A model generated the notes under the pieces. The model searched no databases and was not told the origin of the DNA. It saw only the letters and a list, made by a program, of their open reading frames with translations. Positions 1,025 to 27,310 of a DNA stretch of 27,310 nucleotides are shown piece after piece; the stretch's first letter is position 1, and every line of letters begins with the position of its first letter. A program made the position numbers and the translations under genes. Source of the DNA: a virus (lineage: Duplodnaviria > Heunggongvirae > Uroviricota > Caudoviricetes); IMG/VR virus record IMGVR_UViG_2778261168_000001; one strand, written 5' to 3'.

Positions 1025-2407
1025 TTAACCTGATACTGAGCGCCATGCGCCATTTATATAAATCTGAGCCTGTTTGTAATACACTCCACCGATATTGTCC
1101 GCAGAGTTACTACCGGTCTCCTGCACATTAATCCCAGAAAGAGTGCAACCTGACGGCGCCCGAAAAACCCAGGAAACCTGATTACCGGCTGGTTTGTGAA
1201 ACACCTCACTGGTGTACTGAAAATTCTGCACGCCGCCTGTTTTGGTCTGGTAGCGTTCATCGAAATTGCCATAATCAGTTGGTGTTACCCGCCCTGAAAC
1301 ATCCACTGCACGGTTACTTTGTAACGCGCCATTCTGAAAACGGAATACGTGCTGTCCATTCGCATAAACATCCAGAATGCCGTCACCATTCTGTTTAAAG
1401 CCTGTATCGTTATCCCCGATCGCTATTGAGTTTCCACCCAGCGTGTTCTGAACGCCGATACCAAGTGCACCATTGACCTGAGAACCGCCACCAACAGACA
1501 CTTTATGCGACATGGATATTTCACCCGTCCGCAGATTAATAGTGAACGGGCGAAGTGGACCAATATCGCCATTTTCACCCTGGTTTTCCTGTGTTGGAAT
1601 AAGGTGCAGGCACTCTTCCGAACGACGAAAAATCAGGCCAAAGGCTTCGTTGAAAATCCTCAGCGCATTAACACCACGGATTTTCAGTTCCCCGGTCATC
1701 AAATCACCAGATTTTTTTACATATCGCAGATCAAAATCTGAATAGATATTGCCGGGGTTTATCACGCTGAAATAGCTTTTCTCGCTATCAAGAATGCAAA
1801 TCAAAGGAATACCCTTAATGATATCATTCGCTACCAGCTCGGACTTGTTCCCCTTATAAAGTGGGAACGTACCAAGAACCTTTCCGCCTAGTGTTAGTTG
1901 AAGTGTCGCCGCGTTGGTATTGTTTTGAACGGGGAAAACGATAATCGGGGTTCGTAGCGTCCAATCTGTACCCTCATTAACAAAAAACGTCGAGGGAAGT
2001 TCCAGCGTCAGTGTGTTTGCAGTGCCACCAGAAACACCCGCAATATAATGACCGCTCTGAAGCTGCGCTATCTGTACGAAATAATTTTCCGAACCACGCG
2101 TGGCAAAGTTAGCCACAACGTCATTAAGGGACCAACCTTTCGCGGTTGTTCCTTCCTGCCCACGAATGACTTTCAACACATCACCGCTTACCGATACCAA
2201 GTGACAAATCTCAAATGCAGACTCTTTATTATCGGTAAGCGTAATTTTTGCATAGACGCGTTGCCCGTTCGATTTATTTTCAAAATCGGCAGAAAGCAAT
2301 TTTGCAAATTTAGCCCCTGTACCGGGCATTACCGGAATATCAGTCTGAATCGTGGTGATATCACCAGCCAGTGCTGAAACAACGTTATTGCCGAACCCAA
2401 GAATCAT
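1025..2407 (-). CDS. Tail fibre protein
   Basis: 460 aa. ATG at 2407 overlaps the upstream stop (ATGA). Assigned by position between the gpI-like gene and Tfa, and by Gly/Ser/Thr/Asn-rich composition; family not independently verified. Confidence 0.55.
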   Translation of the reverse strand: MILGFGNNVVSALAGDITTIQTDIPVMPGTGAKFAKLLSADFENKSNGQRVYAKITLTDNKESAFEICHLVSVSGDVLKVIRGQEGTTAKGWSLNDVVANFATRGSENYFVQIAQLQSGHYIAGVSGGTANTLTLELPSTFFVNEGTDWTLRTPIIVFPVQNNTNAATLQLTLGGKVLGTFPLYKGNKSELVANDIIKGIPLICILDSEKSYFSVINPGNIYSDFDLRYVKKSGDLMTGELKIRGVNALRIFNEAFGLIFRRSEECLHLIPTQENQGENGDIGPLRPFTINLRTGEISMSHKVSVGGGSQVNGALGIGVQNTLGGNSIAIGDNDTGFKQNGDGILDVYANGQHVFRFQNGALQSNRAVDVSGRVTPTDYGNFDERYQTKTGGVQNFQYTSEVFHKPAGNQVSWVFRAPSGCTLSGINVQETGSNSADNIGGVYYKQAQIYINGAWRSVSG

Positions 2408-3030
2408 TTTTGAATCACCGTTGTTGCATAAGAATAAATAAAAGGGAGTTTTACATATTTCTGGTCAATGGCATCTTTCAGAAAATAGCCTATACCATCA
2501 CCATATTCTGGTATATGAATAGAAAAAACACTGTCCGATACAGTCACGCTCACATCAAAAGTGTGCTGCAACGGCGGGTCTATTCCGTTTTTTCCATGAA
2601 TGAACCGCGCCACACGGCGCTTTAACCAGTCAATGCAGAAATGCGAACCGTCAGCCTTATAAAAATTCCACGTTAATATTCGTTTGAAATAATCATCAGG
2701 GACATACGATGCCTGCCCCGGAACGTAATTCCGCATTGCTGCGTACGGGATCGTATTGTATTCAATGGTATCGTATGCACCGCGCGCAATAGCCTCCTCT
2801 GAAACCTGTAGTAAAGGTCTTTCAACACCGTAAATACCAAGTGCTATCCAGTCCAGCAACTGCCCGGTTATTGATTCCGATGTCCAGCATGGCAATGCCA
2901 GATTGTTGAGCGAATCGAGGTATTCCTGAGCAATTTCATTGTATGCTTCAAAGAACGCAACAACATTCGGATCATCTCTATACTGCACAAACGGATAAGC
3001 AGGAAGTATTTTCTCAGTCAGATATTGCAT
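2404..3030 (-). CDS. Baseplate/tail protein, P2 gpI / Mu gp48 / YmfQ-like by position
   Basis: Track ORF 2404..3138 begins with TTG. First plausible ATG is at 3030 (MQYLTEKILPAYPF...), overlapping the J-like gene end by 17 nt; an ATG at 3087 is an alternative. Position between J-like and fibre matches P2/Mu/e14 order. Confidence 0.5.
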   Translation of the reverse strand: MQYLTEKILPAYPFVQYRDDPNVVAFFEAYNEIAQEYLDSLNNLALPCWTSESITGQLLDWIALGIYGVERPLLQVSEEAIARGAYDTIEYNTIPYAAMRNYVPGQASYVPDDYFKRILTWNFYKADGSHFCIDWLKRRVARFIHGKNGIDPPLQHTFDVSVTVSDSVFSIHIPEYGDGIGYFLKDAIDQKYVKLPFIYSYATTVIQK

Positions 3031-4240
3031 ACTTATTGACCTGAACCTGTGATGCCACCGTCGAAAAATAGGAATAGGTATCGCCATAAACCAGGCTTGT
3101 GTCTTTTGCCGGAAGAACAATATGGCCGTTAATACCAATGCTCACACTGATTGTTGAGATCAACGTCGCATCAACCAGCAATTTTACGGAGCTGGTAAAA
3201 ATATCCTGGATTCGCAGCAGATTTATCGGGTGACCGACTTCAATAGAATTGATGTAATCAGCAACGTTTTGCTGCACAGCCATAGCAATACCCGCCGGAT
3301 CAACATAATCATCAGACACCGTGTTCCAGGTGATTAGCACCATGACGTTTTGTGATGACGGGATAACGAACGGCACCTGATAAACGTCCGGCGAAACGGT
3401 TATTGAAACCGTGCGTTTTTCCACTGCCGCACCGGATGGATTGCTTACATCGTTGGTCAGTTTCGAAATATCCGGTACAGATTTGTAAATCGCATAAGCC
3501 ACATCATACGGATCACCGCCACCAACAACCGCAACCCATTTCCCCAGCGACGACTGCCGGAAAGAAATCAGGTTTTCTCGCACACCGCTTACTGATTTGA
3601 GCATAGCTTTAAAGCAATCCGGTGTTCCCTGCACACCAAACATGCCGGACTCCATGACTTCGGCGCGGTAAGATGCCCACGTTTGCGCCTCCTGACCGGG
3701 CATTCCTGCGGTAAGGTTGGTGCATTTTACAGGCTGGTCTTTGGGTACTGAGGTAATGACCTGCGTCACGGTCCCTTCCGGTACAGCCCATGAGCCTGAC
3801 GTTGTGGCCACACAGTAGACTGGCTCAGTCTGCCCGTTTTCCGGTACCACGGTATCGCGGGAAACCGCATACTGGTAGTTGCCGTCACCGACAACAAATC
3901 CTTTAGGGATACCAAACCCCGGCAACGCCTCAAACACCACGTATACCGCCGTATTTGTACTTAATCCCTTCTGTGCTCCATATATGTTTCCGAGTTGCAT
4001 CAGTAACGGAATATTCGCGCCGTATGGGCTTACGGAGTTAATAAGGTCCACCCGCGCCTGGTCTATTAATGCCAGCGCCCCGACAGCCGTGCTGGCAAGG
4101 TCTGTAATAAGCCCCGCCGGAAGGTTGGCTGTATATCCAGGTACTTTTTCAGCAACTCTGGTGATAAGATTCGCGAGCAAATCATTGGGTGGCGTAGGCT
4201 GCGCACCCGCACTGGTCATAGTAATTGGTATTTCTGACAT
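3014..4240 (-). CDS. Baseplate J-like protein (P2 gpJ / Mu gp47 family)
   Basis: 408 aa; ATG at 4240 with GGAG RBS 5 nt upstream. Size and position upstream of the gpI-like and fibre genes. Confidence 0.65.
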   Translation of the reverse strand: MSEIPITMTSAGAQPTPPNDLLANLITRVAEKVPGYTANLPAGLITDLASTAVGALALIDQARVDLINSVSPYGANIPLLMQLGNIYGAQKGLSTNTAVYVVFEALPGFGIPKGFVVGDGNYQYAVSRDTVVPENGQTEPVYCVATTSGSWAVPEGTVTQVITSVPKDQPVKCTNLTAGMPGQEAQTWASYRAEVMESGMFGVQGTPDCFKAMLKSVSGVRENLISFRQSSLGKWVAVVGGGDPYDVAYAIYKSVPDISKLTNDVSNPSGAAVEKRTVSITVSPDVYQVPFVIPSSQNVMVLITWNTVSDDYVDPAGIAMAVQQNVADYINSIEVGHPINLLRIQDIFTSSVKLLVDATLISTISVSIGINGHIVLPAKDTSLVYGDTYSYFSTVASQVQVNKYAISD

Positions 4241-4251
4241 ATTTACTCCAT

Positions 4252-4278
4252 AAAAAAACCCGCTTTCGCGGGTTTTTT
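4252..4278. terminator. Bidirectional rho-independent terminator (A7-CCCGC-tttc-GCGGG-T6)
   Basis: Plus 4252..4278 reads aaaaaaacccgctttcgcgggtttttt: perfect 5-bp GC stem extendable by A:T pairs, 4-nt loop, A-run on one side and T-run on the other. Sits 0 nt after the moron stop (4281..4283) and about 10 nt before the J-like RBS. Confidence 0.65.
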
Positions 4279-4280
4279 AC

Positions 4281-5441
4281 TTATTCAACCTCTTCTAAAC
4301 TGCTCACTCTGGACCCTCGGCGGAAATTATCATCATTTTTAACATACTCGTATGAATCCAGAATCAAACCAGATATGCGAAGTATATCTTCCGGATTAGT
4401 TATATGTATCCTTTTACCATCCGTATCAAGTCGAGCTCGTCTTATTTCATTCAACTGAACTTCACTAAGCGAAATAGGTAAAGTTATAAATGAAGATTTT
4501 TTATCATAAAATCTTAACAGCCATCTATTAGTTTTACCATTCAATAGTACACCGAAATATGACTCAGTATCTTTATATTCTATATTATCTTCTGTTTGTA
4601 TGATTTGTTTTACCCTTTCAAATAGCTCCAATTCTTTGGCTGTGGTTATTATGTTGGGGTTTTCTTCATCAACAATGGCGTTATTAACTTGTGTATCCGT
4701 TGCATCATTTTCTTTAGTTTGCTCTACCGGTTGTGTAGATAGCCCGGAAACCACCATTGCGCTAACAGCGCGCTCAACGGCCTGTTTAACTAATGGAGTC
4801 ACGAACTCAAGAAATCTCTGATTAAGTTGTCTCTCAATATTTGAACGACTAGCAACATATCGAACAAACTCCAGATCAACTTCACGAAGACTAGAACTGA
4901 TTGTTTTAGTAAATGAATTCAAATAAACACTTTCTTCAGCCAGTGTCCGTAAAGCCTCTGGTTTGAATTTATCATAACGAAAACGAAATAATTGTGTAAT
5001 ATCGGAGTGAGTTAGAGAATCCATTCTTAATTTTAAAAACGGCGTTGAATCCATTATGTTTTTTTGTTTCAAATCCGTAAAAAAACGCCATTCAACACCA
5101 TTTGTAATGGCTGATATAGTAACTTCCGGTGTTGAATTAAAATATCTTGATAGCTGTGGGCAGTGATTATCAATTTGTTCTGAAAACGATTTCGCCTCAA
5201 TGAACATCACAGGAACATCATGACAAAATAAAGCGTAATCAACCCGTTCATTAGCCTTAACCCCGGGGAAGTCAGCACTATACTCAGCTTTGACTTTTCT
5301 TGGATCATACGGAGTAAAACCAAGAATATCTAGTAATGGCATAATGAGTGCTTGTTTTGTCGTTTCTTCAGTTGTACAAAACACCCCCATTTTTGCAACA
5401 TGCTCTGTGTGTATTTTTAACTTATTTGCAAAATTTTCCAT
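4281..5441 (-). CDS. Moron-encoded protein with N-terminal HsdR-N-like PD-(D/E)xK nuclease domain and a C-terminal domain of unknown function; candidate phage-exclusion protein
   Basis: Track ORF 4281..5456 (391 aa). ATG at 5441 (MENFANKL...) has a GGAGGAG RBS; the ATG at 5456 has none. N-terminus shows TEETTKQALIMPLLDILGF...ERVDYALF...PVMFIEAKSF...ITNGVEWRFF, the motif set of the type I restriction R-subunit N-terminal nuclease domain (compare EcoKI HsdR ...ADYVLF...VVEAK as recalled). Gene is conspicuously AT-rich by eye relative to flanking tail genes. Confidence 0.55.
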   Translation of the reverse strand: MENFANKLKIHTEHVAKMGVFCTTEETTKQALIMPLLDILGFTPYDPRKVKAEYSADFPGVKANERVDYALFCHDVPVMFIEAKSFSEQIDNHCPQLSRYFNSTPEVTISAITNGVEWRFFTDLKQKNIMDSTPFLKLRMDSLTHSDITQLFRFRYDKFKPEALRTLAEESVYLNSFTKTISSSLREVDLEFVRYVASRSNIERQLNQRFLEFVTPLVKQAVERAVSAMVVSGLSTQPVEQTKENDATDTQVNNAIVDEENPNIITTAKELELFERVKQIIQTEDNIEYKDTESYFGVLLNGKTNRWLLRFYDKKSSFITLPISLSEVQLNEIRRARLDTDGKRIHITNPEDILRISGLILDSYEYVKNDDNFRRGSRVSSLEEVE

Positions 5442-5469
5442 GCTTGTCTCCTCCATGGTTACAATCTGT

Positions 5470-5499
5470 ATTTTGCAAATCCGAAATAATATATGTCAA
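5470..5499 (-). promoter_or_regulatory. Candidate sigma70 promoter for the moron gene
   Basis: Minus strand has a perfect -35 TTGACA (5499..5494), an 18-nt spacer, then CAAAAT (5475..5470, 4/6 to TATAAT), about 15 to 30 nt upstream of the candidate starts. A 17-bp AT-rich perfect palindrome lies upstream at 5569..5585. Confidence 0.3.
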
Positions 5500-5590
5500 T
5501 ATGCTCCAGCTTAGAAAATTACTCGCCCCCCTAAAATATCTCTCTACAGCACTCCAAACCAAGGTAAAAGTTTTATCATAAAACTGTGAT

Positions 5591-5938
5591 TCATACCGGC
5601 ACCTGCGTCCGGTAACTGGTCCCATTAAAAAACACAACATCGATGTTATAGGTGGGGTTATCTGCTCCATCTACCTTTGAAATTGCCAATGATGCAAAAT
5701 AGCCGGCAAACTGTTGCTGAACCATGTTCACATAGTAGTCCGGGTAAATCTGCTGCACGATGCACTGCTGCGCAGGAATACCGTAATTCGCGTAAAACGG
5801 CGACTCCCCCAATCCCAGCTTTAACGTCTGAATGAGCGTCGTCAGCCAGCCGTAGGAGAAATCACCGTTGGCGTCAGATTCTACTGCAACCCATTTTTTG
5901 TTGCCGTTCGCGTCGGTGACGCGGCCCCATGTTCTCAT
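5591..5938 (-). CDS. Small baseplate protein, gp25/W-like by position and size (Mu gp46 slot)
   Basis: Track ORF 5591..5971 begins with TTG. ATG at 5938 (MRTWGRV...) has a GGTGAGGG RBS and sits 8 nt after the small upstream ORF stop. 115 aa between spike and J-like genes; family not verified from sequence. Confidence 0.35.
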   Translation of the reverse strand: MRTWGRVTDANGNKKWVAVESDANGDFSYGWLTTLIQTLKLGLGESPFYANYGIPAQQCIVQQIYPDYYVNMVQQQFAGYFASLAISKVDGADNPTYNIDVVFFNGTSYRTQVPV

Positions 5939-5945
5939 CGTGCCC

Positions 5946-6083
5946 TCACCACCATCGGATCTGGCCAACAAAATAACCAGACGCCAGAATCAGAAAGACC
6001 AACCAAATAAGCAAAAACTTCCAGGTGGATAATTTTTCAGCCATAACTCGAATCTCCCGAATCAGTTTGCTAAAATCAAACAC
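5946..6083 (-). CDS. Small hydrophobic single-pass membrane protein (45 aa from GTG, or 32 aa from the internal ATG at 6044)
   Basis: Not in the ORF track (below length cut-off). Minus strand reads AAGGAGAAGTC-GTG...: MFDFSKLIREIRVMAEKLSTWKFLLIWLVFLILASGYFVGQIRWW-stop. Strong SD, hydrophobic core, translationally coupled to the next gene. Confidence 0.35.
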   Translation of the reverse strand: MFDFSKLIREIRVMAEKLSTWKFLLIWLVFLILASGYFVGQIRWW

Positions 6084-6112
6084 GACTTCTCCTTGCCTTA
6101 TTCAAGGTCAGA

Positions 6113-6147
6113 AACAAAAAGCCCCGACTGCTGCAACAGTTCGGGGC
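6113..6147 (-). terminator. Rho-independent terminator on the minus strand, downstream of the spike gene
   Basis: Minus strand reads GCCCCGAACTGTTGCAGCAGTCGGGGC followed by TTTTTGTTTC: about 10-bp GC-rich stem with one bulge, then a T5 run. Confidence 0.5.
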
Positions 6148-18701: not shown

Positions 18702-19515
18702 GTTTGCCCTTCTCCGTTAAAAATTCGTCGGGTAGTTTCTGAGGGGCGTAGATCGGCAGTGCATCGCAACTGCAATAAACCTCCTCCCCGGCAGCAGTGA
18801 TTTCGTCATAAAAACCATATACGGGCTTAATCAGCCCCTGCTCCAGCGCCCACGAATCGCGGAGGAGATAAATTTTCTCGTCGCGCTCTTTGTGGTCCTG
18901 TCGGTATTTGTAGCCCGGACGCCGCCAGTTCGAATGCCAGCGCAGAGCAATCGCACCACTCTGAACAGCCAGCAGATACTTAACGTTGCTTGCCAGCTTA
19001 TGCCCCTGGTCAATTGCCACCCGGCGACTGATAAAATCCATATCCTTCACGGACTTCTGAAAACTGGACTTCACTTCCCGGCGATCAATTTCGCTCACCC
19101 CGTCAGGCGGAATGGACGTAACCCACCCCTGAAAACGCTGTATGGTTTTCTCGATGGCCTGTTCTCGGTTGAGTTTTATCAGGTTGGCACTGGCGAAAAT
19201 TCGCCTGTCGAGTTCCTTGCGAAACTCAGGTTTCAGTTTTTCAACAGTGATTTTTTTAGGGCCGTCAGGAGGCTGATCCCGTAATGCCCCGCCGTCGATG
19301 ACAAGACGGCTGTAGATAGCGGTGAGATGTTTTCTGGCTACGGTATCATCAGGGGTTTCTCGCTGAGCGGCTACACGGAGTTTCCGGCACCATTGGAGCA
19401 ATGATTTTTCGCTATCCCACCCGTGATTTACGTAGTAGTTAACGGCATCCGTCAGAACCTCATACAGCGTCCTGATCCGTCTCTTCCTCCTCCCCGCCCG
19501 GCTGGAAATTGCCAT
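18682..19515 (-). CDS. Head morphogenesis / minor head protein (Mu F / SPP1 gp7-like by position)
   Basis: Track start 19653 is TTG. ATG at 19515 (MAISSRAGRRKRR..) has an AGGAG RBS 7 nt upstream and overlaps the portal 3' end by 56 nt. Immediately follows the portal gene. Confidence 0.45.
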   Translation of the reverse strand: MAISSRAGRRKRRIRTLYEVLTDAVNYYVNHGWDSEKSLLQWCRKLRVAAQRETPDDTVARKHLTAIYSRLVIDGGALRDQPPDGPKKITVEKLKPEFRKELDRRIFASANLIKLNREQAIEKTIQRFQGWVTSIPPDGVSEIDRREVKSSFQKSVKDMDFISRRVAIDQGHKLASNVKYLLAVQSGAIALRWHSNWRRPGYKYRQDHKERDEKIYLLRDSWALEQGLIKPVYGFYDEITAAGEEVYCSCDALPIYAPQKLPDEFLTEKGKREFNRA

Positions 19516-20896
19516 CAGGCGTCTCCTGCTTCGGTGGTTCATAATTCGCCAGCGCGTCCACATCAATGATGAGTGGAGCTTCGCCATAGGTTTGCGTGGC
19601 ATTAACAAGGCTTGCCAGCCATTCAGTGACGGCGGCACGGTTTTCAGGATCAACCTGTGGCGACACGGCCGAGAAAAGTGCTATCGCCTGTTGAATCACT
19701 TTACTGTCGCTTTCCCGGCGTTTGTCCGGCGACTCCTCCACCAGCTCCTGCCACGTCGCGGTAAATTCACGTCGCCACTGGTAAAACGTGGTTTTATAGT
19801 CGTCGGTTATGATGTCCGGGTAATCATTTTTCAGCGACTGATAAAATTCCTCGTTCCAGGCGATGTACTGCACCAGGCGTTCGAAATAATCCATCACAGG
19901 TTCAATCTGCTGGCGTACACCATCGATATACTGGCTGACGGCTTTCGAATCTTCGGTCCCCTCACCGAAACCATTCGAAAAGGCTTCCTCTTTAATGAGG
20001 ATCGCCGGAACGTCACTCCCTGACGCAATATCGGAAATAATATTGTCGCGTGCAGCGTTTAGCGCACCATCGATGTTTTGTAGATTCAGCGAGGTAACGT
20101 CCTCATCCTTCCCGATACTAAGTACACCTTTATTTTTTGCCTCTTTGACGTTTTCCCTTTTTCGTCCCGTGGCGGCAGCCATGATCCCGTCAAGTTTCGA
20201 ACCATACTGCACAACTTTAGCTACCAGTACGCCCGCCTTCTGGCTGACGAGATCATTAGCCTCCATTGTGTTGATATAGGATTTCAGGGAATAAAGAACG
20301 CGCTGAAACACACTTCGTCCGGTGAATCCGAACGATGAACTCTGAAACTCCAGATAAATCGGTGTGCCGTTGAAGATTTTCAGTGTGCGTGACGGATGCC
20401 AGTCTTTTCCGCCAATCTTCAGCTTTTTATTGGCTTCCTGGAAAAACGGACTGTTTGGGTTCTGGTCAGTCACCATCGAACCGGAAGCGTTCAACGGATC
20501 CCACGCGTTGATATACACATCCTCTTCTGTCAGTCCGAACGTCGGAAGCGGTTCACGACATGAAACACTGTCGGTGCCCACGCCGATCGCTGCAGCACCG
20601 TAGCAACGAGACAGAAAAAACAGATTTTTAATCTTCTCGTTAACCTTCATACGTTCCCATACCTCCTGAAAACGCCGCACAACCCGCTCGTCAGGGTCTG
20701 TCTCCACGTTGTACTGGCGCGGCTTACACATCGCCATCAGTATGGGTTTTTCGACAAGTTTCCCGCCCAGCGGGTGGTACTGCCACAGCAGTTTACACAG
20801 TTCATAGCCAATGTCTGTTCCCGGCTGAATTTCTTCAGCCTCAAGAATGCGCATCAGCGAAGAACTGAGATTTACAGAAATCTCGATCTCAGCCAT
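19460..20896 (-). CDS. Portal protein
   Basis: 478 aa; ATG at 20896, 18 nt after the terminase stop; acidic C-terminal tail (..GGEEEETDQDAV). Position and size. Confidence 0.65.
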   Translation of the reverse strand: MAEIEISVNLSSSLMRILEAEEIQPGTDIGYELCKLLWQYHPLGGKLVEKPILMAMCKPRQYNVETDPDERVVRRFQEVWERMKVNEKIKNLFFLSRCYGAAAIGVGTDSVSCREPLPTFGLTEEDVYINAWDPLNASGSMVTDQNPNSPFFQEANKKLKIGGKDWHPSRTLKIFNGTPIYLEFQSSSFGFTGRSVFQRVLYSLKSYINTMEANDLVSQKAGVLVAKVVQYGSKLDGIMAAATGRKRENVKEAKNKGVLSIGKDEDVTSLNLQNIDGALNAARDNIISDIASGSDVPAILIKEEAFSNGFGEGTEDSKAVSQYIDGVRQQIEPVMDYFERLVQYIAWNEEFYQSLKNDYPDIITDDYKTTFYQWRREFTATWQELVEESPDKRRESDSKVIQQAIALFSAVSPQVDPENRAAVTEWLASLVNATQTYGEAPLIIDVDALANYEPPKQETPDGNFQPGGEEEETDQDAV

Positions 20897-25234: not shown

Positions 25235-25261
25235 ACAGCCTTGCTTTATGAATAAAACGCA

Positions 25262-25285
25262 CCCCAGCAGCCAGTGCTACTGGGG
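25262..25285 (-). terminator. Possible intrinsic terminator downstream of trkG
   Basis: Plus reads ccccagcag-ccagtg-ctactgggg (9-bp stem with 1 mismatch); the minus-strand stem is followed by TGCGTTTTATT. Confidence 0.35.
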
Positions 25286-25371: not shown

Positions 25372-26829
25372 TTAGGAGCGCCAAAAAAAACCTGAAAACA
25401 ATATAATAACAGGATAAATTTCAAGGCGACCAAGAATCATAGCTATGCACATTAAACATTTTGCAATGTCATTAAGCACTCCGAATGACGATGCAGTAGC
25501 CCCAAAACCTAATCCCATATTATTAATACATGCAGCCACTGTTGCAAATGATGTAAGAAAATCATATCCCATACCATTTAACACCAGTATAAAAAACACC
25601 GTGAAGAGAGTATAAAGAAAAAAGAAACTCCATACAGACCTCATTACACGATCTGTAACTATCTTCCCTCCTACATTTACACTCAACAACGCTCTGGGAT
25701 GAGAAAGCTGATTTATCTCGTGTTTGCTTTGTTTGAAAAGTATAAGAAATCGAAGTGACTTAATTCCACCACAAGTTGAACCTATACATCCCCCAAAGAA
25801 ACTTGACAACAGCAAAAACACTATCGTGTGCGTGGGCCAACTTGCATAATCCTGCGTAGCTAAACCATTATCAGTGAGCATGGAGCTGGCAAGAAAAAAC
25901 GAATGAATAAAACTTCCATGCAAGTCATACATACCTATATGCCAGACCTGGAAAGAGGTAACAATGATCACCCCTAAGGCTATTAACAGAAAGAAACGAA
26001 GTTCAATATCTCTGATTAAAGGTTTTATCGTTTTCCTGCTAATAACAATATACCAAAGAGTGAAGTTGAAAGCCGATAGCAGGGAAAAAGAACCAGCCAC
26101 CAGCTCAACCAAATAGTTATTAAAATATCCGATACTCTCGCTATGAGTTGAGAAACCACCAAGCGAAACTGTGGAAATCCCGTGACAAATAGCATCAAAC
26201 AAAGGCATTCCTGCAAGTCTATAACAGACAATACAAGCAATACCTAATAAAGAATAAGTTATCCACAGTGTCCGTGACGTATCGGCCAGGCGGGGAGTGA
26301 GTTTGTCATCCTTAAATGGCCCCGGCATTTCTGACTGATAAAGCTTTGCACCACCAATACCCAATAATGGCAATACAGCAACCGCCAGAACAATAACTCC
26401 TAAACCACCTATAAAATTTAACTGTGACCGATAGTACAAATATGCCCGAGGTAATGAACTAACATCATCAATTACAGTTGCTCCTGTTGTTGTTATTCCA
26501 GAAACCCCTTCAAACAGAGCATCAATGAACGTTAAATTAAGTTCTGAGTCAATCCATAAAGGGAATGCACTAATAACAGAAAACAAAATCCAAAACATTA
26601 CAATTATAATAAACCCATCACGGGTACGTAATTGAATGCCAGATTTCTTAGTTGTATACCACGCTCCGCCACCAATGCAAAAAAATATAACGAAAGTTAT
26701 AAAGAAAACGAACAGGCTTTTTTCTTTATAAAACAATGCTACAACCATTGGTGGCAACATTGAAAGACTATAGAGCCAAACCAGGAACCCACACATATGA
26801 GTAACAACTCTTACATGAGATGTATTCAT
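25372..26829 (-). CDS. trkG: TrkG/TrkH-family potassium uptake transporter (prophage cargo)
   Basis: 485 aa from ATG at 26829 (MNTSHVRVV..); the track's 491-aa version starts at TTG 26847, which has an AAGGTGG SD. Multiple membrane helices with the reiterated glycine-containing pore motifs of TrkH/KtrB (FCIGGGAWY, TTGATV, NFIGGLGV, STVSLGGFS, GGCIGSTCGG, INNMGLGFGAT). Gene is visibly AT-rich. Rz/Rz1-trkG is the Rac prophage arrangement as I recall it. Confidence 0.85.
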   Translation of the reverse strand: MNTSHVRVVTHMCGFLVWLYSLSMLPPMVVALFYKEKSLFVFFITFVIFFCIGGGAWYTTKKSGIQLRTRDGFIIIVMFWILFSVISAFPLWIDSELNLTFIDALFEGVSGITTTGATVIDDVSSLPRAYLYYRSQLNFIGGLGVIVLAVAVLPLLGIGGAKLYQSEMPGPFKDDKLTPRLADTSRTLWITYSLLGIACIVCYRLAGMPLFDAICHGISTVSLGGFSTHSESIGYFNNYLVELVAGSFSLLSAFNFTLWYIVISRKTIKPLIRDIELRFFLLIALGVIIVTSFQVWHIGMYDLHGSFIHSFFLASSMLTDNGLATQDYASWPTHTIVFLLLSSFFGGCIGSTCGGIKSLRFLILFKQSKHEINQLSHPRALLSVNVGGKIVTDRVMRSVWSFFFLYTLFTVFFILVLNGMGYDFLTSFATVAACINNMGLGFGATASSFGVLNDIAKCLMCIAMILGRLEIYPVIILFSGFFWRS

Positions 26830-26846
26830 ATCTAAATATTCTTTCA

Positions 26847-26900
26847 ATTATAACCACCTTGCTGCAATATTATGATTATACTGTATAAAATTTAACTCCT
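26847..26900 (-). promoter_or_regulatory. AT-rich upstream region of trkG with two perfect TATAAT hexamers (candidate promoter)
   Basis: Minus-strand TATAAT at 26880..26875 and 26852..26847; no convincing -35 found. Confidence 0.25.
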
Positions 26901-26966: not shown

Positions 26967-27263
26967 TTACTTTAAACACTGCTCGGTTATGTATTGCTGA
27001 GCACCTTCAAGTTGGGCCTGCATCATTACCAGTCGTTCCCGGAGGGTGAAATAATCCCGTTCAGCGGTGTCTGCCAGTCGGGGGGAGGCTGCATTATCCA
27101 CGCCGGAGGCGGTGGTGGCTTCACGCACTGACTGACAGACTGCTTTGATGTGCAACCGACGACGACCAGCGGCAACATCATCACGCAGAGCATCATTTTC
27201 AGCTTTCGCATCAGCTAACTCCTTCGTGTATTTTGATCCTACCCACGTAATATGGACACAGGC
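26967..27263 (-). pseudogene. rzpR: Rz-like i-spanin gene fragment (C-terminal part only; N-terminal membrane anchor missing)
   Basis: Translation ...KYTKELADAKAENDALRDDVAAGRRRLHIKAVCQSVREATTASGVDNAASPRLADTAERDYFTLRERLVMMQAQLEGAQQYITEQC matches the lambda Rz C-terminal two-thirds as recalled. The frame hits an in-frame TAG at 27266..27264, and the residues upstream of KYTKEL diverge from Rz. Confidence 0.55.
27026..27211 (-). CDS. rzoR: Rz1-like o-spanin outer-membrane lipoprotein
   Basis: 61 aa, ATG at 27211: MRKLKMMLCVMMLPLVVVGCTSKQ... with lipobox LVVVGC and a proline-rich segment (KPPPPPAWIMQPPPDWQTP), embedded in the +1 frame of the Rz-like ORF. Near-identical to lambda Rz1 as recalled. 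Confidence 0.8.
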   Translation of the reverse strand: MRKLKMMLCVMMLPLVVVGCTSKQSVSQCVKPPPPPAWIMQPPPDWQTPLNGIISPSGNDW

Positions 27264-27310
27264 CTAAGCGAGGTTCTTGTTTTCAAATTGTTCCGGACTG
27301 AGGCCGCCAC

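Follow-up and report, generated by a model that had tools for sequence, protein, structure and literature searches.

Accessory genes carried inside late operons, and the passage of late transcription across them, have been described for several lambdoid phages. Morons, as recounted for HK97 and HK022 in parts of PMC2629481 (after Juhala et al. 2000), are extra genes with their own promoter and factor-independent terminator, placed between late genes that are adjacent elsewhere. In P22, RNA polymerase from the late promoter must transcribe through the 'ant moron' to reach the tailspike gene (passages of PMC2629481 citing Adams et al. 1985). Late-operon Q proteins block the formation of terminator hairpins, according to excerpts of PMC9388147 and bioRxiv 10.1101/651190, and DUF1133 has been listed as 'Q antiterminator (HHPred)' (PMC8136144).

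The locus analyzed here lies in a window of 27,310 nucleotides (the whole stretch of DNA that was analyzed, IMG/VR record IMGVR_UViG_2778261168_000001), in which a terminator-like hairpin stands between a moron gene and a J-like baseplate gene in the late tail-gene operon of a Rac-type lambdoid E. coli prophage (Table 1). We consider it probable, judging from sequence and related genomes, that the hairpin is the self-contained terminator of the moron, that late transcripts cross it by Q-like antitermination and that the nearby stop codon adds some leakiness. The arrangement would then be an ordinary one, in which polymerases transcribing the late genes should pass over the stop signal of a moron.

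Table 1. Features of the locus and other late-strand hairpins, in window coordinates.
Feature	Position	Strand	Basis or remark
J-like baseplate gene, 408 aa	3014..4240	-	Pfam Baseplate_J; phrog_6 baseplate wedge subunit
J Shine-Dalgarno GGAG	4246..4249	-	2 nt after U-run, 5 nt ahead of AUG
Inserted cassette (promoter, gene and terminator, as predicted)	4250..5590	-	31-40% GC; homology breakpoints with relatives
Bidirectional intrinsic-terminator-like hairpin	4252..4278	both	G/C core 4259..4272; sequence, folding, strict scan
Moron ORF, 386 aa, HsdR_N-type (PD-(D/E)xK nuclease-like)	4281..5441	-	full-length phrog_4225 'endonuclease' member
Moron sigma-70-like promoter, TTGACA-18 nt-CAAAAT	5470..5499	-	consensus match only
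115-aa baseplate-region gene	5591..5938	-	phrog_7986; upstream of cassette
Second hairpin, GCCCCGAACUG-UUGC-AGCAGUCGGGGC then U5GUUUC	6111..6147	-	after bppV-like gene
Third hairpin, GGGGAGC-UAAAU-GCUCCCC then U6GU	15680..15706	-	19 nt after major-head-like ORF
Hairpin with U-rich tail	25250..25285	-	after trkG moron, ~15 nt before ParB-like late-strand gene start

On the minus strand, which carries the genes, the TAA of the moron ORF (4283-4281) is followed in order by GU, A6, CCCGC, GAAA, GCGGG, U7, AU, the GGAG (4249-4246), UAAAU and the AUG of J (4240-4238). Read on the plus strand, the hairpin consists of A7 (4252-4258), CCCGC (4259-4263), TTTC (4264-4267), GCGGG (4268-4272) and T6 (4273-4278), so that the transcripts would be A6-CCCGC-GAAA-GCGGG-U7 in the gene orientation and A7-CCCGC-UUUC-GCGGG-U6 in the other. 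The whole is a perfect 11-bp palindrome with a 4-nt loop and A6-7 and T6-7 runs on either side, and it takes up 27 of the 40 intergenic nucleotides between the moron and J. The moron stop codon lies 2 nt from the A-run and 8 nt from the G/C stem, and the minus-strand U-run ends 11 nt from the AUG of J. The first-pass annotation had given the letters and coordinates of the hairpin exactly and had placed it correctly behind the moron on the late-gene strand; its estimate of about 6 nt between the T-run and the GGAG is corrected here to 2 nt.

The gene strand displays the anatomy of an intrinsic terminator, with five G/C pairs closed by a GAAA loop and followed without a gap by U7, situated downstream of a stop codon in the intergenic gap. 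The A-tract upstream is the U-tract of the opposite strand, the anatomy of a bidirectional terminator. Either strand folds at -15.4 to -15.8 kcal/mol (z -3.9 to -7.1; 0 of 200 shuffles as good), with -9.1 kcal/mol for the G/C core by itself. A strict scan of the 27.3-kb window picked out this hairpin and no other as flanked by an A-run and, on the opposite side, by a T-run; 60 dinucleotide shuffles contained none, and perfect stems of at least 11 bp arose at 0.02 per shuffle. The hairpin is absent from the output of a consensus terminator scan, probably as a result of the stem being extended through the A/T pairs, which consumes the T-run. Six other cassette-bearing E. coli genomes have the same hairpin at the same spacing to J, the only change being U6A there versus U7 in the window, and the identical stem in all available copies leaves no covariation signal to be obtained.

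The cassette upstream of J measures 1.34 kb and has a GC content of 31-40%, against 47-55% in its flanks. In relatives with other cargo, homology extends to the stop codon that closes the 115-aa gene, breaks off there and restarts at the ribosome-binding site or ATG of J. An in-frame ATG at 5456 would lengthen the moron product to 391 aa; the start at 5441 is favoured by a GGAGGAG ribosome-binding site (5454..5448) and is also the one picked by PGAP. The candidate promoter combines a perfect -35 with a weak -10, and both hexamers are invariant in seven sequences. The protein has no match at E <= 0.1 among PADLOC defence-system families, zero matches among PDB sequences and, in NCBIfam, only sub-threshold similarity to type I HsdR. 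A homologue in KpF5 adjoins the repressor and ends with a near-identical terminator design, AAAUCCCGC-UUAU-GCGGGAUUUUUUU. Another, in an Stx2 prophage, is convergent with Q and has no obvious terminator, so the pairing of gene and terminator is not constant. The gene appears dispensable for virion assembly, being endonuclease-like and missing from sister phages. Along the lines of Juhala and Hendrix, it has flanking genes that are adjacent elsewhere, a terminator-like hairpin of its own inside the cassette bounds and a deviant GC content, and the label of moron seems genuine, indeed a textbook case.

Comparison with relatives lacking the insert, which the first-pass annotation had proposed, clarifies the history of the junction. 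In Yersinia phage vB_YenM_29.18 the homologues of J and the 115-aa gene share an ATGA overlap, and they are arranged likewise in Klebsiella phage Chronis (identities of 52% and about 43% for the flanking-gene homologues); the two phages appear to serve as empty sites. These distant phages are the only ones to do so, with no empty site in close E. coli relatives among the best 60 records. Instead, the same junction holds other cargo (ant, LprI-like, Rha) in more than 35 E. coli genomes among the matches listed and in phage Rac-SA53. The cassette therefore looks like a replacement at a hotspot and not a fresh insertion, and the junction is best described, on this comparative evidence, as a putative cargo hotspot of Rac-type lambdoid prophages in E. 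coli. In the sister phages the ant/LprI-like cargo is antisense, leaving 1-2.5 kb untranslated on the late strand, and a plus-strand gene begins 21 nt from the ATG of J. The plus-strand promoter in the 5' end of J that the sister phages suggest was considered and set aside, with no promoter-like site there in the window or Rac-SA53.

The 2 nt between the U-run and the J Shine-Dalgarno are too short for any promoter, which leaves late transcripts no way to J and the I-like, fibre and Tfa genes that follow it except across the hairpin. On this layout, expression of J and its downstream genes is predicted to depend on read-through, as the first-pass annotation had concluded. It had left three explanations side by side (a leaky hairpin, antiterminated late transcripts or lowered fibre-gene expression), of which Q-type antitermination appears the likeliest route. 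The support comes from the lambdoid family, from a Q-like DUF1133 gene with a promoter-like site and tandem terminators, and from at least three other late-strand hairpins. The hairpin at 6111..6147 is kept in all relatives, with an E. coli W variant that still pairs, and that at 15680..15706 is found exactly in E. coli 214-4. The candidate at 25250..25285 is weaker because its U-tract is not adjacent to the stem.

The Q-like gene, the pR'-like promoter and the terminators near them are seen in related genomes only, outside the window; in the window, an IS3-family end inside Rz separates the late operon from whatever lies farther upstream. In E. coli 214-4, one strand carries in order recE/kilR, replication genes, DUF1367-DUF1364-DUF1133, tRNAs, lysis genes, terminase, head and tail. 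The DUF1133 gene was named Q by the depositors of Rac-SA53. Its protein scores 26.2 and 27.6 bits against Pfam PF06530 Phage_antitermQ, borderline at a cut-off of 26, and its best PDB sequence matches, weak at E 0.24, are chains deposited as Q or antiterminator Q. Downstream of the gene in E. coli 214-4 there are seven terminator-like sites versus 2.4 +/- 1.4 in shuffles; it is followed by a TTGAAA-16-TATTAT site, two tRNAs, tandem terminators and one more terminator before the holin gene. No Q-binding or pause element was identified, there being no model for an element of the DUF1133 type.

In a lysogen, RNA initiated at the moron's own promoter would stop in the U7 tract, and the hairpin would protect its 3' end while keeping J and the I-like, fibre and Tfa genes silent. 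Upon induction, the late transcript would start far upstream at a pR'-like promoter, as the architecture and the relatives suggest, and RNA polymerase carrying the Q-like DUF1133 protein would prevent terminator hairpins from forming. Such a polymerase would read through 4252..4278 and at least three other late-strand hairpins and, in the sister phages, would also cross the 1-2.5 kb of antisense cargo. Since no more than 8 nt lie between stop codon and stem, ribosomes completing translation of the moron could occlude the 5' arm and may add leakiness independent of Q, by analogy with published tR2 experiments. The A-run side could in turn stop plus-strand antisense transcripts, for which nothing in the window calls.

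Intrinsic leakage in place of antitermination, as the main route by which J and the fibre gene are transcribed, is rather unlikely, even with several features in its favor. The hairpin, with its 5-bp core, is weaker than the three others on the late strand, so that of the 'strong bidirectional' terminator of the first-pass annotation the two-sided anatomy stands while its strength is not established, and a terminating ribosome would mask the 5' arm. In lambda tR2, placing the stop codon 5 bp upstream instead of 28 bp upstream reduced termination from ~90% to <10%, and full efficiency required more than 27 nt between stop and terminator (PMC4824070). Yet the other late-strand terminators are stronger and stand farther from stop codons (19 and about 40 nt), so a general means of read-through would still be required; the sister phages have their untranslated stretch to cross, and the family possesses a Q-like gene whose downstream region is laid out as expected. 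Leakage and antitermination are not mutually exclusive. That the insertion has instead lowered or silenced the expression of J and of the I-like, fibre and Tfa genes, leaving cassette-bearing prophages impaired or defective, we regard as decidedly unlikely. The cassette occurs in 0 of 50,697 phage records, and the IS3-family end interrupts Rz in the prophage of the window itself. Against this, the cassette has at least 99.3% identity across 25 complete genomes that differ in source and serotype and represent two diverged backbones, with J annotated as intact. Between two cassette-bearing prophages, J and the I-like gene have a dN/dS of 0.04-0.05 and no stops, which points to strong purifying selection and not decay, although that selection on J could have acted mostly in cassette-free ancestors and have reached this locus through recombination. 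The J Shine-Dalgarno, a weaker GAGA in relatives, is if anything the better one here. Lowered expression is conceivable, but the downstream genes are not decaying.

Two further readings concern the hairpin itself. A selected role on the plus strand, keeping antisense transcripts that originate in the J/fibre region, or in host genes past the prophage end, out of the moron and making termination in the late direction a mere by-product, is very improbable as a whole. The canonical features are present in both orientations, which makes the plus-strand stop envisaged by the first-pass annotation structurally possible, and the sister-phage plus-strand gene so close to the ATG of J implies that in those phages transcription on the plus strand has to start inside J or past it. 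However, no plus-strand promoter-like site that would require such a stop was found in 2049-4559 of the window or upstream of the Rac-SA53 plus-strand gene, consensus scans being weak evidence either way. The better tail (U7) and the GAAA tetraloop both belong to the minus orientation, which comes directly after a stop codon, and A-tracts are also common upstream of one-way terminators, as reported in part of PMC4824070. That there is no terminator at all, only a chance palindrome or an element of RNA stability or processing, has the slightest probability. Searched in full against Rfam at gathering thresholds, the window returned zero matches, as this reading would have it, though Rfam does not model generic terminators. 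The lack of such hairpins in the shuffles, the exact placement between stop codon and next ribosome-binding site, the perfect U7 tract and the near-identical design behind the KpF5 homologue all argue for a terminator.

Returning to the antiterminated moron terminator, the close spacing at this junction (stop codon, 8 nt, stem, U7, 2 nt and Shine-Dalgarno) also invites a more speculative idea, which we think unlikely, that the terminator is gated by ribosomes. If so, the entry of polymerase into J would be set by how closely it is followed by a ribosome translating the endonuclease-like moron, and expression of J, the I-like gene and fibre would hinge on translation of an accessory gene that may serve in defence, a coupling that would replace the ancestral ATGA translational coupling of the 115-aa gene to J. 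The locus has little importance beyond annotation, but offers a clean and well-bounded case of a lambdoid prophage adding an accessory gene, predicted to be independently expressed, without breaking its late operon. Of greater interest may be the nuclease-like protein of the moron, which is widespread in phages but missing from catalogues of defence systems. As a compact natural bidirectional terminator of 27 nt, as predicted, the hairpin could be used to test the effects of stop-codon proximity and of antitermination by DUF1133 Q-like proteins, which have been little studied.

Compared with known systems, the hairpin shares the A-tract, G/C hairpin and U-tract of E. coli bidirectional intrinsic terminators, as treated in part of PMC4824070; those usually lie between convergent genes, whereas the present one lies between two genes of the same direction. 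Like the late operons under Q-lambda, Q21 and Q82 (excerpts of PMC9388147 and bioRxiv 10.1101/651190), the relatives have a gene in the Q position, a promoter-like site, tRNAs and terminators, with more than 25 kb of lysis, head and tail genes on one strand and several internal terminators; the DUF1133 protein differs in being only borderline similar to the Q21 family, and the likeness is read from relatives, all outside the window. The resemblance to the lambdoid morons of HK97 and HK022 (Juhala et al. 2000, via portions of PMC2629481) comprises the extra non-morphogenesis gene of deviant base composition, its own promoter-like site and factor-independent terminator, the position between late genes adjacent elsewhere and the direction of the operon. 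It differs in that close relatives of the window carry other cargo and no empty site, and independent expression is here a prediction. The ant moron or immI region of P22-like phages, between gene 16 and tailspike gene 9 (PMC2629481), has unrelated cargo and different flanking genes, and serves a podovirus tailspike where the window encodes a myovirus-like baseplate; the cassette here has no ant, mnt or arc. Still, the place where the 115-aa gene meets J, as a putative Rac-type cargo hotspot, is analogous to that site. Both place hypervariable cargo just before the last tail genes of the late operon, often with an antirepressor, as in the sister phages, and both require transit of the polymerase, which may modulate the amount of downstream tail product (passages of PMC2629481; Adams, Brown & Casjens 1985).

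The hairpin described in the first-pass annotation, A7-CCCGC-TTTC-GCGGG-T6 at 4252..4278, is exact in the sequence, and all of the genes neighbouring it are on the minus strand. It takes up 27 of the 40 bases between the moron ORF and the baseplate J-like gene (J), and its U-run ends 2 nt before the GGAG Shine-Dalgarno of J, not the ~6 nt originally described. The folding energy is -15.4 to -15.8 kcal/mol on either strand (0 of 200 shuffles as stable), with -9.1 kcal/mol for the G/C core by itself. In a custom scan no other hairpin of the 27.3-kb window lay between an A-run and a T-run (0 in 60 dinucleotide shuffles), and nine strict terminator-like hairpins were counted over both strands (0.83 +/- 0.92 in shuffles). 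A consensus terminator scan of the window did not list the hairpin, probably because it runs the stem on into the A/T pairs and thereby consumes the T-run.

Features of the hairpin, its cassette and the late strand (positions in the window)
Feature	Position	Strand	Basis or remark
Plus-strand hairpin parts	A7 4252-4258; CCCGC 4259-4263; TTTC; GCGGG 4268-4272; T6 4273-4278	+	sequence
Minus-strand order	TAA of 386/391-aa ORF (4283-4281), GU, A6-CCCGC-GAAA-GCGGG-U7, AU, GGAG (4249-4246), UAAAU, J AUG (4240-4238)	-	sequence
Sigma-70-like site of moron, TTGACA-18-CAAAAT	5499..5470	-	consensus scan
Gene after hairpin, baseplate J-like		-	Pfam Baseplate_J; phrog_6
Order beyond J: 208-aa gene, fibre gene, Caudo_TAP tail-fibre-assembly gene		-	gene calls, Pfam
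Terminator-like hairpin after bppV-like gene	6147..6121	-	-17.8 kcal/mol; kept in every relative
Terminator-like hairpin after major-head-like ORF	15706..15688	-	-14.2 kcal/mol
Terminator-like hairpin after trkG moron	25285..25262	-	-18.9 kcal/mol; tail less canonical

The cassette boundaries were aligned among the window, E. coli 214-4 (same cassette), phage Rac-SA53, E. coli W and the 'Actinobacillus' phage pPE4. Homology breaks upstream where the 115-aa gene stops (about 5591) and downstream no more than about 10 nt from the J ATG, and the hairpin is therefore part of an inserted cassette (4250..5590), as the earlier reading of a moron insertion implied. In the distant phages Yersinia vB_YenM_29.18 and Klebsiella Chronis (J 42% identical), the 115-aa-gene homologue (52% identity) overlaps J through ATGA with no gap; thus the ancestral state is two adjacent genes, probably translationally coupled. 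Sister phages carry in the same gap an opposite-strand LprI-like gene starting 21 nt from the J ATG, a hypothetical gene, and an AntA-family antirepressor with a promoter-like site of its own. The window's cassette occurs at 99.3% identity or more in 25 of 5,426 complete E. coli genomes and, among the matches listed, ant/LprI/Rha cargo variants of differing lengths occur in many more. The junction of the 115-aa gene and J is a cargo hotspot in Rac-type phages.

Set against E. coli 214-4, the window's cassette is 99.8% identical and its 115-aa gene (5591..5938) has 0 differences in 348 nt, amid flanking genes that differ by 1.4-4% on both sides. Recent recombination therefore appears to have carried the cassette, together with the gene upstream of it, between diverged prophage backbones. 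Over its first 89 nt (4152..4240), J matches, at 95.5%, an unannotated stretch in a 221.5-kb E. coli record (NZ_JBREQR010000002.1, strain 401651) with no match around the 89 nt, which may be a recombination remnant. 'Actinobacillus phage vB_Apl-pPE4' (PP818812.1) has ~96.5% DNA identity to E. coli Rac-type prophages over the tail region, which is unexpected when the host belongs to the Pasteurellaceae and points to an E. coli origin or a mix-up. Another small insert (5946..6147) lies between the bppV-like and 115-aa genes, which overlap in the Yersinia/Klebsiella phages. It holds a terminator-like hairpin and a 45-aa hydrophobic ORF (6083..5946, phrog_6632), and its DNA has ~84% identity to a stretch shared by roughly 900 genomes of E. 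coli and by many Stx phages; phage CP-1639 has a homologue of the ORF directly upstream of Rz.

On the evidence of the sequence itself, late transcription has to cross the hairpin for J to be expressed, as previously argued. No promoter fits in the 2 nt before the Shine-Dalgarno, and there is no conserved J promoter because the sequence directly upstream of J varies with cargo type. Antitermination, leakage and lowered fibre-gene expression had been offered as alternatives, and Q-type antitermination appears the most likely route. The prophage is Rac-type lambdoid and E. coli 214-4 carries, on one strand, recE/kilR/ydaT, replication genes, DUF1367-DUF1364-DUF1133, two tRNAs, holins and endolysin, terminase, head and tail genes. 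The DUF1133 gene is named Q by the depositors of Rac-SA53, and DUF1133 is given as 'Q antiterminator (HHPred)' in a survey of Stx phages (PMC8136144); the protein is barely over the cut-off for Pfam Phage_antitermQ (PF06530), and its top PDB sequence matches, deposited as Q / antiterminator Q (6JNX, 6P18), are weak (E = 0.24). Past the Q-like gene of 214-4 lie a promoter-like site, the tRNAs, two tandem terminators and one more before the holin gene, a region with 7 sites compared to 2.4 +/- 1.4 in shuffles. The window has three more terminator-like hairpins on the late strand, and in sister phages late transcription has an extra 1-2.5 kb to cross with no translation on that strand; such an operon needs a processive, termination-resistant polymerase. 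Q proteins narrow the RNA exit channel, leaving no room for terminator hairpins to form (PMC9388147; bioRxiv 10.1101/651190). We infer that late polymerase with a Q-like (DUF1133) antiterminator would read through the hairpin, the Q gene being outside the window.

Some Q-independent leak is plausible by analogy to lambda tR2, where a stop codon 5 bp before the terminator reduces termination from about 90% to under 10% and full activity requires a stop codon >27 nt away, because the terminating ribosome masks the 5' arm of the hairpin (Li et al., PMC4824070). The G/C stem begins 8 nt past the moron stop codon, and a ribosome ending there may add leak to the Q route. The bidirectional anatomy proposed at first stands, but 'strong' is not established, this core stem also being the weakest among the four late-strand hairpins. 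That the insertion crippled the genes downstream is argued against by their conservation between the window and 214-4, with the cassette in both: J has 17 nt differences and just 2 aa changes (dN/dS 0.04), the gene after J has 25 nt and 4 aa differences (dN/dS 0.05), and neither has internal stops, though recombination could have imported sequence selected elsewhere. Upstream baseplate genes gave dN/dS 0.12-0.19. Additionally, strains from humans, cattle, a baboon, an otter and water carry the cassette, on two diverged backbones, and the GGAG of J is a better Shine-Dalgarno than the GAGA of relatives.

The hairpin had also been described as able to stop plus-strand antisense transcription. With its UUUC loop and U6, the plus-strand form is close enough to canonical to function, but a consensus scan found no plus-strand promoter-like site within 2 kb upstream, nor was one found at the equivalent place in Rac-SA53. 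Bidirectionality is probably a by-product of the A-tract.

GC content is 31-40% across the island that holds the moron ORF (4281..5441), compared to 47-55% in both flanks, and the sigma-70-like site of the ORF precedes a GGAGGAG RBS and an ATG at 5441. The ORF hits Pfam HSDR_N and HSDR_N_2 and belongs, over its full length, to phrog_4225 'endonuclease' (E = 9.5e-149); RefSeq names it 'type I restriction endonuclease'. An N-terminal HsdR_N-type nuclease domain precedes ~250 residues without a Pfam match, and the protein matched neither PADLOC defence models nor PDB sequences. A 78% identical copy of the gene in an Stx2 prophage is convergent with Q and has no obvious terminator; in Klebsiella phage KpF5 the gene for a 66% identical protein is directly downstream of the repressor and ends in a terminator much like that of the window, AAAUCCCGC-UUAU-GCGGGAUUUUUUU. 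Temperate phages of Firmicutes, Porphyromonas, Corynebacterium and Fusobacterium encode remoter homologues, in a family that spans several phyla and is often found beside repressors or Q genes. These locations are typical for accessory genes expressed from the prophage, and the protein may serve prophages as an uncharacterised nuclease for exclusion or defence.

A second moron of the operon is the AT-rich trkG/TrkH potassium-transporter gene (25372..26847, late strand), flanked by Rz1 and the ParB-like gene, the same layout as in K-12 Rac; its hairpin and U-rich tail end ~15 nt ahead of the next gene start. The right end of the window (27234..27310) resembles the terminal repeat of an IS3-family element that inserted into the Rz lysis gene, of which only the C-terminal 62 aa remain (26967..27155), with the embedded Rz1-like lipoprotein ORF (27211..27026) intact. 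E. coli L73 has a simple IS3 insertion at the same Rz junction, and beyond it lie the genes for lysozyme, holin and a DUF1133 Q-like protein. Elsewhere, a 478-aa protein of E. coli 214-4 (28198..29634 in its sequence L005; window 19460..20896) is named 'anti-CBASS protein Acb1 family protein' in RefSeq; its gene lies between terminase and head genes, the position of a portal protein, which puts the name in question.

The first-pass observation is confirmed and its interpretation supported but for small corrections. The hairpin would be a moron terminator of a kind already known, ordinary for the late operon of a lambdoid prophage. The cassette fits the published definition of a moron, and the 'ant moron' of P22, between gene 16 and the tailspike gene, is a close parallel (PMC2629481).
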